Below, piece after piece: positions 39,990 to 54,661 of a stretch of 64,000 nt of DNA. Below the pieces are notes generated by a model, which saw only the letters and a list, made by a program, of their open reading frames with translations, was not told where the DNA came from and did not search any database. This stretch comes from Dictyostelium discoideum (lineage: Eukaryota). The translations under genes were made by a program, and so were the position numbers. The stretch lies in the NCBI GenBank assembly GCA_000004695.1, contig CM000152.2:5600001-5664000 (forward strand). The letters run 5' to 3'. The first letter of the stretch is position 1; every line of letters starts with the position of its first letter.

Positions 39990-41144
<1,155 letters not shown>

Positions 41145-47194: not shown

Positions 47195-47241
<47 letters not shown>

Positions 47242-47341
47242 CAATAATTTATTTTATAAAATCTTTTTTTTATTTTTAATTATTATTATTTTAAAAAAAT
47301 AACAATAAATTATAAATTATAAAAAAAAACAAAATATAAAA

Positions 47342-47588
47342 ATGTCAGTTTTAAGTAAGTGCTACTTTTTTATAAAGTTTTTAAAATAAAAATATAATTA
47401 TTCTAATTAATTTTAATTTAGAAAATATAACCTCACTTTCAACTTTTTCAAAATCTTTAAATTTAAAAAAACAAATATCTGTTGACTTTTCAAACAATAA
47501 TTCCCTTCAATCATTTAATAATTATTCTAGATGGAGTCCAAATTATACAATAATTGGATATTGTTGTAAAAATATCATTGCTGCTTGA
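47342..47588 (+). CDS. Paralog of the 45911 gene (about 62 aa)
   Basis: ATG TCA GTT TTA A followed by GTAAGT, acceptor at 47420/47421. Exon 2 gives KNITSLSTFSKSLNLKKQISVDFSNNNSLQSFNNYSRWSPNYTIIGYCCKNIIAA*. It shares the SRW(T/S)P...IIG...KN(V/I)IAA* C-terminus with the 45911 gene. Confidence 0.5.
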
Positions 47589-47630
47589 TCATATTTTTAA
47601 AAATATTTATCCTAAACCGAATAATAAAAC

Positions 47631-47689
<59 letters not shown>

Positions 47690-48018
47690 TATATGTATAA
47701 TTAAACTTTAAAGAAGTAAAATGATAGATTTGTAATCATGGTTGATATATAAAAAAAGAATATGATTTATTTATTTCATTATAATAAATATTAAAAATTG
47801 TTTAATACAATGTTAAAGGATTATTAATAAAATTAAGGTGCAACAATTTATAAATTTAAATATGAAATTATAAATATAAATTAAAATCTTTATTTAAGTA
47901 AATTTATGAATTCCTAATTTAATAGGAATCAATGAAAAAATTAGAATGTTATTGGTGTTGTGCAGTCTCATTACAAATATAAATAAATGTATTATTGGTT
48001 TAAGTTGATTATAAATCA

Positions 48019-49047
48019 TTATTTTAAATAATTACATAATGCGGTTTTGCAATTTGAATTATTGGTTTCACTTCTAAAGAATTTTAACAAGGTTGCATAA
48101 CAACACTCTACATTAGCAAAATATTTTCTATGGAATTTCTTGGCACTCCATTTTTTGTTGTTTTTTTTCTTGAATTTTGATTTTACCTTTGAACATCGTT
48201 CAGGAATGGGAATTTCAATTTTTATTATGTCTTGTTTACCATTTTGTTTTTTTCTTGACTTTTCTTCTACAATATTTATATGTTGAGTTGGGTGGTTCCA
48301 TTGATTGTAACAAAGGTCATATAATCTTTGGATATCACCTTTATACAATTTAGTACCTTTTGTAAGTTTAAAAGTTGATCTTATAGCATAATGATTGATT
48401 TTTGCTTCTTCTGAGGATGTTGTTGCATTTTTCAATACTTTAAAACCTAATGATTTGCTGTTAGAGGAATACATTATGTTATCAATCGAGTTTCTACCAG
48501 TTGTTGTTTCTATATCTTTATCATTTGCAAAAGAAATTTCATTTCCTAATTTCTCTTTTATTTGAGTTCTATTATGATTTATATCACCAGCAATTAAAAA
48601 AGGAATATTTTTTTCAATAAGTTTTGATACCAATCTTTCCAAAATAAAAAAATTTTCCGAAGCACTATTTTGTGATTTCTTTTGTGGTATATGGCAATTA
48701 ATTACTACAAAGTAAACGTCCTTATGTTTAAACGAAACAATATGGAGTCTTGTACCACTCTTAGCTTCAAATTCTTCAATAACTTTAAGACTTGAATTAT
48801 TATATATTATTCTTTATTGATTTTCTTTTTTTGATTTATCTCTTGAACCTGTTTTATTTTTTAAATTTCCATAGTTCTCGAAATCCTGAAAATCTCTATC
48901 AATCTCTTGTAAACATAATATATCATTTTTATTAAAATTATTTAAAAGCAATTCATCCTTTATTTGATTTTTGAATGTATTTTTAAGAGGTTTACCACCT
49001 TGGATTCCTGCATTTAAACTTCCTACAGTTACCCTGGCTGAATCCAT
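48019..49047 (-). pseudogene. APE/EEP-type endonuclease-domain gene, copy A; single in-frame TAA (about 48810)
   Basis: Track ORFs 48814..49047 (MDSARVTVGSLNAGIQGGKPLKN...NDILCLQEIDRD...KKENQ*) and 48019..48642 (...NIPFLIAGDINHNR...NSIDNIMYS...INHYAIRSTF...) are the same frame separated by one stop. Motifs match AP-endonuclease/EEP motifs: DILCLQE(T/I), GD(F/I)N, (R)IDxI and (S/N)DHxP-like. Copy C has CTA (Leu) where copy A has TAA. Confidence 0.6.
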
Positions 49048-49509
49048 TTTTTAAATTTTTAAAATTTATGTGATTTTTTTTTTTGCTAATAAAAAAGAAT
49101 TTACAATAAATATAAAAAGATTAGTTTTATGTACAGTTTGTTAATGGTATCATTACAAATATAAATATATGTATTATTTATTGGTTTAAGCTGATTAGAT
49201 ATCATTATTTTAAATAATTATTTAATGCAGCTTTACAATTTAGATAATGGGTTTCACCTCTAAAGAATTTTAACAAAGTTGCATAACAACACTTTACATC
49301 ACCAAAATATGTTTTATGGAATTTCTTTGCACTCCATTTTTTATTTTCCTTCTAGAATTTTGATTTTACCATTGAACATAATACAAGATGTGGGAATATT
49401 GAGATTTTCATTTTTTGTTATGTTTTGGTTACCATTTTGTTTTTTTCTTGGCTTTTCTTGTTGAGTGGGGTGGTCTTTCAATTCATTGTAACAAAGGTCA
49501 TATAATTAT

Positions 49510-50040
49510 TTAATTATTTAATTCAGTACCTTTTTTAATGTTAAATGTTGATCTTATAGCGTAATGATTGATTTTTGCTTTTTCTGAGGATGTTATTGCA
49601 TTTTTCAATACTTTAAAATATAATGATTTGCTGTGAGAAGAAAACATAATGTGATCGATTGAGTTTTTACCAATCGTTGTTTCTATATCTTTATCATTTG
49701 CAAAAGAAATTTCATTTCCTAATTTCTCTTTTATTTGAATTCTATTATGATTTATATCACCAGCAATTAAAAAAGGAATATTTTTTTCATTAAGATTTGA
49801 TACCAATCTTTCCAAAATAAAAAAATTTTCAAATGCTTTTTCTTTGGATTTCATTTGTAGTATATGGCAATTAATTACTACAAAGTAAACGTCATTGAGT
49901 TCAAACGAAACAATCTGCCTATCTTAACTACAACTTCTTCAATAACTTTTAGATTGAATTATTATAGATTATTCTTAGTTGATTTTCTTTTTTTAATTTA
50001 TCTCTTGAACTTGTTTTATTTTTTAAATTTCCATAATTCT
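49510..50040 (-). pseudogene. APE/EEP-type endonuclease-domain gene, copy B; 5'-truncated with multiple stops
   Basis: Track ORF 49510..49854 (MKSKEKAFENFFILERLVSNLNEKNIPFLIAGDINHNRIQIKEKLGNEISFANDKD...INHYAIRSTFNIKKGTELNN) is homologous to copies A and C. The upstream part 49855..50040 retains recognisable codons (GNLKNKTSSRDKLKKENQLRIIYNNS) but carries several stops. The N-terminal third is absent. Confidence 0.45.
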
Positions 50041-51049
50041 TAAATTTAATTATATATTTATTTTATTTAATATTTTAAATTTTAATATTATGTGTTCATT
50101 ATAAGATTTATTATAATATTAAGATTTAAAAAATAGGGGTTTCGATTATTTAAAAATGGAATTTTTTTTTTTTTTTTTTATTTATGTTTTTTTATTTTGT
50201 TATTGAATTATTAAAAATAAAAAAAATAAATATAGAAATTAAAAATAGAAAAAAAAATATTTAATTTGTGAAGTTGGTTTTTGTGTAACAGAAATAATTA
50301 CTAAAAATAATTTGTTAAAAAAATAAAATAAAAAAAAAAAAAAAAATTATTTTTTTTTTTTTGAGAATTGATTTTTAAAAATTATTTCTGTGAATTATCC
50401 ATTTTTTTTTTTTTTTTTATTTAAAATTTCTATTTTTTTTTTTTTTTAATTTTATTTATTTTTATAGCTATTTAAAAATTTTCAAAAAAAGATTGTTGTA
50501 AAAATTCAAAATAATATAATCATTTCGTTTCAGAAGAAGTAGTTAATCAATTCAAAAAAAAGGAAAAAATAATATCAGATTTTGATTAAATTTTTTATTT
50601 TTTTGAACACAACCACTTGAAAATTAAAATCAAATAATAATATTGTTAAATACAATTATAATATTTAAGGATCCTAATTAAATAAAAAATAAGGTACAAC
50701 AGTTTATTAATAAAATATTATAAATATATATTTATATATAAAAGCTTTATTTAAGTATGAATTTAATAGAAATTATTGATGTTTGGATGTAATGATTTTA
50801 AACATTCATATTAATATTTTACAATTTGTTTAGTACTATTATCATTACATATATAAATGATATGTATTATATGTTTAAGTTGATTAAAAATTATTTAAAT
50901 AATTAATTAGTGCAATTTTGCAATTTAGATTTTGGCTTTCACCTTTAATGAGTCTTGACAATGTACTTTTAGAACAACTACCATTAAAATATTTTTCATG
51001 AAATCTAGTGGCATTCCATACTTTGTTTTCATTCTTGAATTTTGGTATT

Positions 51050-51940
51050 ACCAATTTAACTAATATATCATTGGGAATATCATCACCAATTTCAAATTTT
51101 TGTTTTGTTTTGTTGACAATTTTGTTTTTCTATTGGTCTTTCAATTTCTTTGTTAATAATTATTTGTTGATTGAGGCGGTTTTTCCATTGATTACTACAA
51201 TTATTATATAAATATTGGATATTTCCTTTAAGCAAATTTATACCTTTTTTAAGTTTAAATTTAGATCTTTAAGCAAAATGATTGATTTTTGCATTTTCTG
51301 AGGATATTGTAGCATCGTTGAATACTTGGAAATTTTCTAATATATTGTGATTGGAGTACATAATGTGATCGATTGAGTTACCACCTGTTGTTGTTATTTT
51401 ATCTTTATCATTTGCAAAATAAAAATGATGACCTATTAAGTTGATTATTTGAGTTCTATTATGATTTATATCACCAGCAATTATAAAAGGAATATTATAA
51501 TAATGAAAATTTTTTACCATTTCTCTCAAAATAAAAAAATTTTCTATTGCACCAAGTTTTAATTTCTTCTTTTGTGGTATATGGCAATTAATTAATACAA
51601 AGTAAACATCATTAAGTTTAAAAGAAACAATCTGGAGTCTTGAACCAATGTCAACTAAAACTTCTTCAATAACTTCAAGATTTGAATTATTATATATTAT
51701 TCTTAGTTGATTTTCTTTTTTTGATTTATCTTTTGAACTTGTTTTATTTTTTAAATTTCCATAATTCTTGAAATCCTGAAAATCTCTATCAATCTCTTGT
51801 ATACATAATATAAAATTTTCAATTAATTTATAATTCTCATCAAAAAACAAATTAGTTTTTATTTGATTTCTGTATGTATTCTTAAGTGATTTACCCCCTT
51901 GGATTCCTGCATTTAAACTTACTAATGTTGCAGTCTCCAT
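51050..51940 (-). pseudogene. APE/EEP-type endonuclease-domain gene, copy C; premature TAA at about 51269
   Basis: Track ORF 51269..51940 (METATLVSLNAGIQGGKSLKN...ILCIQEIDRD...IIAGDINHNRTQI...NSIDHIMYS...INHFA*). The homologous frame continues after the stop (RSKFKLKKGINLLKGNIQYLYNNCSNQW...), matching the copy A C-terminus. The conserved 3' flanks at 47960..48170, 49150..49340 and 50850..51030 define the tandem unit. Confidence 0.55.
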
Positions 51941-52431
51941 TTTTAAATTTTTAAAAATTAAAATTATATGTAATGATTTTTTTAATATTTAATTAATGTT
52001 AAAAAAATAGAAGAAACAATGAATAAATATTTATTTATAATTTTTTTTTCTCAATTTGATGAGTGGATGTAAATTTTAAAAATTTCAGCAATTAAAGTGG
52101 TGAAAAGTAATTTTATGGGTTTGTCGCACTTTTTTTTACTTTTGTTTTTTATTTTCTATGCGACTTACAATTTGCACACTTAAAAATTTAAAAAAACTTA
52201 ATAATAAATAAAAAAATTTAATTACATTTAAATAAATAAAAAATTAAACAATTTTTTTATTTATTTATTTTGTTTATTTTTTTAATTTTCAATAAAAATT
52301 AATTGTTTATTTTGTAATGAAAGTGGCTTTATTTAATTTATAATTTATAATATGAGTTGATGTTATGGAAGTATTTTTTTTTTTTTAATAACATCACTCA
52401 ATTTGAGTGTGTTCTAGGAGAGTTTATTTGT

Positions 52432-52480
<49 letters not shown>

Positions 52481-52493
52481 CTTGTTATTCTTA

Positions 52494-52562
<69 letters not shown>

Positions 52563-52579
52563 TTTATTAATGTTGTTAT

Positions 52580-52626
<47 letters not shown>

Positions 52627-52918
52627 GTAGTTGGTGTTATATCAGTATGGTATGAAGTGTTCCGGGATGTTTATGGTCATGAGTTTCGAGTTCCAGTTGT
52701 GGCTGAATTTTTCGAGTCTTCTTTTTATTGATGCGGTCCGATTGATTGATTCTTGGTTATCAGTGCATCTTAGTTCTTGACGTAATTGCCTTTCTACTAT
52801 CTTTCTTGTTCTATCCCATTCGGCATCTCTCGCTTTTTTGATTTTATGAATTATTTGGTTCTCTGTTATTTTATGGAAGTATCGAAAATAGTTATTCAAA
52901 ATAAATTTTCATAAAAAT

Positions 52919-52991
52919 GCCCGGCTAGCTCAGTCGGTAGAGCGCCAGACTCTTAATCTGGTGGTCGGGGGTTCGAGCCCCCCGTTGGGCG
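52919..52991 (+). tRNA. tRNA-Lys (anticodon CTT)
   Basis: 73-nt cloverleaf GCCCGGCTAGCTCAGTCGGTAGAGCGCCAGACTCTTAATCTGGTGGTCGGGGGTTCGAGCCCCCCGTTGGGCG. It has A and B boxes, anticodon loop CUCUUAA and the same acceptor stem as metazoan tRNA-Lys(CUU). It is followed by T-rich Pol III terminator AATTTTTTATTTT. Confidence 0.9.
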
Positions 52992-53080
52992 AATTTTTTA
53001 TTTTAAAATTTAATAGTACACTGGTTCAATTCTTAACTTGGTCCCACCAATGGTTTAAGAGGATTGTGTAATTATTTACC

Positions 53081-54002: not shown

Positions 54003-54075
54003 TCACCCATTGTGGGTCTCGATCCCACGACCTGCAGCTTAGAAGGCTGCCGCAATTCCAACTTTGCTAAACGGG
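54003..54075 (-). tRNA. tRNA-Arg (anticodon TCT), probable
   Basis: The reverse complement gives GCCCGTTTAGCAAAGTTGGAATTGCGGCAGCCTTCTAAGCTGCAGGTCGTGGGATCGAGACCCACAATGGGTG. It has D-arm, anticodon stem GCAGC/GCTGC with loop CUUCUAA, T-arm GTGGG-ATCGAGA-CCCAC and a 7-bp acceptor with two G-U pairs. A poly-T follows within 10 nt. It is head-to-head with tRNA-Lys about 1 kb away. Confidence 0.6.
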
Positions 54076-54661
54076 CTTTGTTGAATTTAAAAAAAATTAT
54101 AGCCAAAATCGGCATTAATTTTAAAGTTTGTACCTTGTTTTATTTCTGATGAAAAACATCGGGTATTGTTATTATTTAAATATTTTGTAATTTTCAGCCT
54201 CTATACCATTATTATTTTAATTTTTTTTTTTTTTTTTTTTTTTTTTTGAATTTAATATTTTAAATTTAATAATAATATTTTTTATTATTGTTGAAAAATA
54301 TATGTGGTCAATATTTCAAATAAATATAATAATTTACAATAGATTTATTTAGATATATAATGTAAATTAATAAATGGTTATTAATATTATTATAATTATT
54401 TTTTTTAAATTTTTTTAAATTCTACACAACCTAATATTTAAACCTAATATTTTTTTTTTTCATTTTATTATTGCTTTTTCACACCCAATATTTAAACCAC
54501 AAAGATATCAAAAAAATATCTTAGGAATAAAAAAAAAAAAAAATTTAAAAAATTTTTTTCATTGATTTTTATTTTAGTTTTTTTTTTTTATTTTTTTTAT
54601 TTTTTATAATTATAAAAACACAACAATTTAAAAAAAAAAAATATTTTTTTATCTCTTAAAA

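Follow-up and report, generated by a model that had tools for sequence, protein, structure and literature searches.

The question raised by this locus is whether three related open reading frames (ORFs) lying close to a pair of tRNA genes in Dictyostelium discoideum are the remains of a mobile element or of an ordinary cellular gene family. We analysed a 64,000-nt stretch of the genome (GCA_000004695.1, contig CM000152.2, positions 5,600,001 to 5,664,000 of the forward strand; hereafter the window), which is about 80% A+T. An initial annotation, made from the letters alone, had described a tandem triplet of endonuclease-domain pseudogenes and offered two explanations: a recently amplified and now decaying cellular gene family, or a non-autonomous element built around the AP-endonuclease (APE) domain of non-long-terminal-repeat (non-LTR) retrotransposons. 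We conclude that the array very probably consists of three inactivated paralogues of a dictyostelid-restricted cellular family with the endonuclease/exonuclease/phosphatase (EEP) fold, sitting at a fixed site between the phosphatidylserine decarboxylase gene (psd) with its adjoining tRNA pair and a formin gene.

The array occupies 47.8-52.0 kb of the window and comprises three minus-strand paralogues, here called A, B and C, with pairwise DNA identities of 75-88%. A repeat finder detected 300-nt cores (family D5) at spacings of 1173 and 1714 nt, in agreement with the 1.2-1.7 kb noted before. When unit A was searched against the window by BLASTN, 931 nt aligned between A 47965-48878 and B 49147-50040 (84% identity) and 1360 nt between A 47778-49068 and C 50623-51960 (75%), with E = 0 in both cases; no fourth copy was found in the 64 kb. 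From the extents of these matches, homology spans the coding region, about 20 nt 5' of the ATG and, 3' of the stop, 54 nt (A/B) or 240 nt (A/C), which corresponds to the conserved 3' flanks that had been described. The protein motifs quoted at that time are all present, NSIDHIMYS being exact in C only and reading NSIDNIMYS in A and NSIDHIMFS in B.

Each copy carries lesions that interrupt its reading frame. Copy A has the single in-frame TAA attributed to it (48814-48816), at a codon that is CTA (Leu) in B and C and encodes Leu in every intact homologue. Copy C has a different TAA (51269-51271), directly after the catalytic His, so that the last core strand (225-233 in the structure model described below) and the whole C-terminal domain are lost; the initial annotation had recognized this stop and missed a frameshift further downstream, caused by an indel of net +7 nt near 51080-51097. 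After repair of the frame, C is open to its proper stop (50884-50886). The catalytic residues of A and C are all intact up to the lesions, and C has 93% nucleotide identity to P0006, a gene that is intact in another strain. Copy B, rightly described as truncated with multiple stops, has lost its first ~165 nt (~55 codons), the catalytic Asn and Glu among them, and carries at least six further lesions, of which two are nonsense codons and four are frameshifting indels (-1, -10, -8 and +10 nt), without sharing the TAA of A; its residual ORF of 114 aa (49510-49854) was called as a gene in assembly GCA_054883475.1. Given this truncation, the four frameshifts and the two nonsense codons, against the few lesions in A and C, B appears to be an old wreck and A and C young pseudogenes.

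A region that is AT-rich and filled with homopolymers can cause indel errors, and the stops might accordingly be assembly or sequencing artefacts in genes that are intact in the organism. We compared the window with the second assembly, GCA_054883475.1, and found 0 mismatches and 1 gap over the 4.4-kb array (4400 nt), against 25 mismatches and 18 gaps in 21 kb elsewhere (the 18 gaps are probably mostly length differences in long homopolymer runs). All three copies are the same in both assemblies, which are otherwise not identical; the stops are therefore not read errors. Moreover, the nonsense codons of A and C lie outside homopolymer runs, and each is two changes away from sense: TAA in A stands where B and C have CTA, and TAA in C where A has ATA. 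We give an artefactual origin next to no credence. The lesions are defined against intact homologues and reproduced in independent sequence and, to judge from them, all three copies are disabled in the AX4-type genome.

Intact relatives are found at the same chromosomal position in other amoebae. At six further loci, or seven with that of the window, the gene order is enoyl-CoA hydratase, RNA polymerase subunit, psd, tRNA-Arg(TCT), tRNA-Lys(CTT), EEP gene(s), formin and polyubiquitin; D. discoideum, D. cf. discoideum and D. citrinum share this site. Each further locus holds one to three copies, and the mix of intact and broken genes varies: two intact and one broken in strain FIR, two intact and a fragment in FIW (plus one intact copy on another contig), one intact in FIZ, one intact in D. 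citrinum and two broken in FIY, against three broken copies in AX4-type genomes. The intact copies of wild strains encode 326-372 aa. These intact orthologues and paralogues, in other strains and species, bear out the earlier suggestion of a decaying cellular gene family; the fixed chromosomal site and the intactness in wild strains indicate a host gene and not part of a jumping element.

In a DNA tree the copies fall into three paralogue lineages: an A lineage (AX4_A, AX4_B, FIR_3, FIW_2 and FIY_2), a C lineage (AX4_C, FIR_2, FIW_L2 and FIY_1) and a third lineage (FIR_1 and FIW_1) that is absent from AX4. By this tree the three lineages are older than the divergence of the strains, and the wider family reaches Heterostelium; describing the genes as recently amplified was thus only partly right. 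In both strains that have the extra third-lineage copy, a partial duplicate of tRNA-Lys(CTT) lies 3' of it (L002 7300-7338 and L003 11655-11693), 2.3-2.4 kb from the real tRNA gene. The duplication unit therefore took in part of the tRNA gene, which is a signature of tandem segmental duplication. We propose that the array grows and shrinks by DNA-level segmental duplication and unequal exchange, in units of ~1.3-2.4 kb, with copies later lost (birth and death). On this view the death of B in the AX4 lineage would be old, and those of A, with one nonsense codon, and C, with one nonsense codon and one frameshift, recent.

The reading frames have been under selection. Nei-Gojobori ratios of nonsynonymous to synonymous substitutions (dN/dS) among the intact copies range from 0.46 to 0.96; by domain they are ~0.4-0.9 in the EEP part, ~1 in the linker and 0.45-1.5 in most comparisons of the C-terminal domain, with 2.2 in one low-divergence pair. 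In a neutral simulation that placed the observed substitutions at random, 7-12 stops were expected in the deeper pairs (P(0) < 0.001), and on this ground the frames have clearly been maintained. Copy A has 1 stop against the ~6 expected had drift begun at the split from its nearest intact relative. Between strains the EEP genes diverge by 7-14% of nucleotides (dS 0.11-0.16), 3-4 times more than their coding and non-coding flanks (~3.2-3.7% mismatches; L001 versus L002/L003). This excess may reflect paralogue sorting, gene conversion or long-lived alleles.

Next, we characterized the protein family. A protein search with repaired copy A returned ten homologues of the AX4-type subfamily, all from D. 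discoideum, D. cf. discoideum and D. citrinum, the two AX4 reference models DDB_G0282329 and DDB_G0282333 among them. A profile search of 1.84 billion representatives, for which the intact homologue P0002 served as lead sequence (as it did for the structure model), added, at strong E-values, relatives from D. dimigraforme and Heterostelium album (PPL_04577) and, at other loci, a second subfamily from D. cf. discoideum. Its matches outside dictyostelids were two weak environmental proteins (E 7e-6 and 2e-4) only, which leaves a horizontal origin unsupported; within the reach of these searches the family is restricted to dictyostelids.

Assignment to the EEP fold, which had been recognized from motifs, is corroborated by structure and invariant residues and, more weakly, by profile matches. 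The Pfam family Exo_endo_phos (PF03372) matches 9 of 11 members at E <= 1 (best 5.4e-6), and P0012 has a precomputed match to it. A phmmer search with repaired copy A gave no match to PDB sequences. A profile search of PDB sequences ranked bacterial-type EEP hydrolases, nocturnin and ExoIII-type nucleases first. The AlphaFold2 model of P0002 (predicted local distance difference test, pLDDT, 78.2) has the four-layer alpha/beta sandwich of the superfamily, and Foldseek matched it to 172 PDB entries with E <= 0.001; 50 of the 50 matches listed are EEP enzymes, OCRL among them. The matches to Tdp2, CNOT6L, nocturnin, bacterial EEP proteins and the L1 endonuclease (probability 1.0, E ~1e-10) share 12-16% identity with the model and favour no EEP subfamily. 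EEP enzymes use a catalytic and metal-binding set of Asn, Glu, Asp-x-Asn, Asp and Asp-His. We mapped these motifs by strand position in the predicted model together with established knowledge of them, and found N12, E51, H122, D158, N160, D193, N222 and H223 invariant in 11 of 11 sequences, from Dictyostelium to Heterostelium, in accordance with the canonical set save for the last motif. A match to CdtB (NCBIfam, 17 bits against a cut-off of 189) was rejected as generic EEP similarity, and PADLOC gave no matches.

The intact protein is predicted to consist of an N-terminal EEP-fold, Mg2+-dependent phosphodiesterase, a basic disordered linker and a C-terminal four-helix domain resembling the lambda-repressor/POU-specific/CUT-like helix-turn-helix (HTH) fold. 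Searched alone against Pfam, the C-terminal domain gave only noise and no profile match. It differs from lambda-repressor-like domains (POU-specific, CUT, MuB N-terminal and XRE/Cro-CI) in lacking such a match, in Foldseek values of E > 1 against structures of this class and in its conserved Cys (C337 is invariant), which is atypical for the class. We infer that the substrate is a nucleic acid and that the C-terminal domain binds DNA, so that the protein would act as a nuclease or nucleic-acid phosphodiesterase anchored there by a putative HTH domain. The amoeba family thus has in common with the EEP superfamily (Tdp2, CCR4/CNOT6L, nocturnin, ExoIII/APE1 and bacterial EEP hydrolases) the predicted four-layer fold, the catalytic set Asn, Glu, His/Tyr, Asp-x-Asn, Asp and His, and Pfam and PDB profile matches that are weak but consistent. 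It differs from the solved members in its low identity and in a sixth motif that is Asn-His instead of Asp-His, and from the superfamily in its fused C-terminal HTH-like domain and its confinement to dictyostelids. To our knowledge, no characterised EEP enzyme has such a fusion. The family is a small orphan subfamily of a known enzyme superfamily with an unusual EEP plus HTH-like architecture; its evolutionary mode is familiar.

Both full-length copies are annotated as genes in AX4, by the reference and by a newer annotation. The DDB_G0282329 model (P0001, 320 aa) equals the translation of copy A minus 22 residues, which are removed as an 'intron' of 66 nt (48783-48848) that spans the TAA, and the DDB_G0282333 model (223 aa) covers copy C as far as the TAA. 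Taken as annotated, A would be spliced around its stop and C would yield a catalytic-domain-only protein, both functional; the proposed intron has GT...AG ends and a length that is a multiple of 3, and the catalytic residues of both copies are unharmed as far as the lesions. However, the excised segment is coding in every intact homologue, with the pattern ...SSxDKSKKENQLRIIYNNSNLK...; seven of its residues are counted as invariant in a nine-sequence alignment (those listed as invariant are S, S, K, N, Q, L, R and I), and in the AlphaFold2 model it holds the core beta-strand 80-85. In D. discoideum the 5' splice consensus is GTAAGT, from which the 5' end of the segment, GTTCAA, departs. For these reasons (a coding and conserved segment, a core strand within it, a 5' end off consensus) we take the 'intron' to be an annotation device. 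As for C, its TAA takes away the last core strand and the C-terminal domain, with the frameshift still to follow. Full-text literature searches with the gene identifiers found nothing relevant to these genes. We consider it unlikely that the two genes function in AX4 as annotated; judging by their lesions, DDB_G0282329 and DDB_G0282333 are most likely young, rescued pseudogenes. With all three copies inactivated, the AX4 genome probably makes no functional product from the locus.

Several observations weigh against our view of the array as dead members of a constrained EEP family. Repaired copy A scores just under the Pfam gathering threshold for PF03372 (23.9 versus 24.5 bits), and the last catalytic motif of the family is N-H where D-H is canonical. 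The dN/dS values are so high that some of the protein may evolve without constraint. Finally, the GT...AG intron of A could conceivably be spliced, and the 223-aa product of C could exist.

The initial annotation had placed two tRNAs 1-2 kb away, and the distances from the ATG of copy C are indeed 0.98 kb (978 bp) for tRNA-Lys and 2.06 kb for tRNA-Arg; Rfam found nothing beyond these two tRNAs in the whole window. The copies could on this basis be relics of a non-autonomous mobile element built on a retrotransposon-type APE endonuclease and brought to the tRNA genes by TRE-type targeting. Several features are shared with such an element: the EEP fold is common to the L1 and TRE endonucleases (L1 ORF2p is among the Foldseek matches), two tRNA genes are close by, a genuine TRE remnant adjoins tRNA-Lys, and one strain has a copy on another chromosome. 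The sequence relationship is nevertheless missing. Aligned by hhalign with a TRE-type APE domain, taken from ORF2 of a full element in strain FIZ, the family obtains a probability of 1.6%, and no similarity specific to a TRE endonuclease was seen. Pfam Exo_endo_phos_2 touches 1 of 11 members (E = 0.07), and among PDB sequences the family comes closest to bacterial-type EEPs, nocturnin and ExoIII.

Position and structure also separate the copies from TRE5 and TRE3. TRE5 elements insert ~50 bp upstream and TRE3 elements ~100 bp downstream of tRNA genes (PMC5006619), against at least 0.98 kb for the copies, a distance too large for the proposed targeting. The site of the copies is syntenic in the seven loci and three named taxa. 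An RT (reverse transcriptase) ORF was looked for in and beside the units and none was found, as had been stated before; ORF1 is lacking as well. The duplication units carry promoter and 3' untranslated region (UTR), their ends being ordinary promoter and 3' UTR, and show neither poly(A) tails nor target-site duplications. In sum, the copies have neither the APE relationship, nor an RT or poly(A) and target-site duplication, nor the tRNA distance at many sites that would mark a TRE-type element. The proposed link to tRNA-targeting retrotransposons and the alternative of a non-autonomous endonuclease element both fall, and we regard a mobile origin of the copies as highly improbable.

The single ectopic copy is likewise better explained without transposition. 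In strain FIW a C-lineage copy lies outside the array, on another contig (another chromosome) and among unrelated genes. Compared with the empty site of an AX4-type genome (represented by the cluster sibling P0070), a 1.76-kb insertion (L004 9660-11414) replaces ~18 bp (L010 7363-7380). The insert is a genomic chunk comprising ~350 nt of upstream sequence with the promoter, the gene with its 3' flank and, after that, 170 nt of array-distal flank that correspond to window 47487-47648, beyond copy A. Both junctions show 8-10-bp microhomology, TGTTTAATTG and TTGTTTGA, and comparison of the junctions with the empty site shows no target-site duplication. The copy abuts an A-run, and could be taken for a retrocopy; this was rejected, since promoter and array-distal flank form part of the insert and the empty site has the A-run already. 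By its structure, the FIW copy arose through microhomology-mediated relocation of an array segment at the DNA level, and not by transposition or retroposition.

Genuine retroelements are present at the tRNA genes themselves. A 5'-truncated TRE-type non-LTR remnant (window 52430-52870, minus strand) lies directly upstream of tRNA-Lys. Its ORF (52642-52899) matches the C-terminus of a TRE-like ORF2 with 30% identity over 70 aa (E 1e-12), and a long poly(A)/(TAA)n tract comes after it; the homology starts ~50 bp upstream of tRNA-Lys, as expected for a TRE5-type element. At the same tRNA pair, strain FIZ has a full-length non-LTR element with ORF1 and an APE+RT ORF2 (L005 635-5606), and strain FIY has a long-terminal-repeat (LTR) element with RT, RNase H and integrase (L007 3520-8089). 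Because full-length retroelements occur there in other strains, the tRNA-Arg/tRNA-Lys pair is a polymorphic insertion hotspot, and because these real and separate retroelements use it, the proximity of the EEP array to the tRNA genes is a coincidental co-location.

The coordinates of the array and of its proximal edge are collected in Table 1.

Table 1. Features of the EEP array and neighbouring tRNA genes (window positions).
Feature	Position	Strand	Remarks
Conserved 3' flank of the duplication unit, probable 3' UTR	47778-48018	-	Common to A and C, first 54 nt also in B; BLASTN
Copy A, EEP plus C-terminal helical-domain gene, full-length, 342 codons	48019-49047	-	Annotated as DDB_G0282329
Copy B, A lineage, dead and truncated at its 5' end	49205-50045	-	~55 codons gone
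Copy C, full-length, second paralogue lineage	50884-51940	-	Annotated as DDB_G0282333
Upstream (promoter/5' UTR) region of copy C	51941-52058	-	Conserved with C-lineage copies of other strains
tRNA-Lys(CTT)	52918-52992	+	Context only; proximal edge of the syntenic locus, outside the gene family
tRNA-Arg(TCT)	54004-54076	-	Context only

The conservation upstream of copy C is seen in a 90% match of L004 9872-11240 to window 52058-50715. On the distal side, the polyubiquitin gene (39999-41137) consists of five head-to-tail 228-nt ubiquitin repeats with a mutual identity of 88-91%, and the formin gene (~41.8-45.2 kb) adjoins it. Pure A or T homopolymer runs of 40-55 nt flank the array on both sides (47630-47685, 47199-47245, 52431-52480 and 52580-52622).

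The array offers a clear small-scale example of birth-and-death evolution and of microhomology-mediated gene relocation in a very AT-rich genome. It follows the general pattern of birth-and-death tandem gene families in its copy number of 1-3 between strains, differentially retained lineages, partial duplicates, young strain-specific pseudogenes and raised dN/dS. We can speculate, at a low level of confidence, that intact EEP-HTH proteins are DNA-targeted nucleases in genetic conflict, acting either in defence against retroelements or foreign DNA, or as a strain-specific toxin or selfish gene. Such a role, if true, would join the restriction to dictyostelids, a dN/dS near 1 alongside invariant catalytic residues, the 3-4-fold excess divergence, the turnover in copy number, the ectopic jump and the repeated loss of function, including complete loss in the axenic laboratory lineage.

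For the reference genome, the analysis corrects the reading of two gene models, most likely pseudogenes, of which DDB_G0282329 owes its open frame to an intron that cuts out a conserved core strand, and removes a tempting but wrong link from an EEP fold near tRNA genes to tRNA-targeting retrotransposons. The standard laboratory strain appears to have no annotated copy that is intact, against one to three in wild isolates, and functional study of the family would therefore need wild strains or a reintroduced intact allele.

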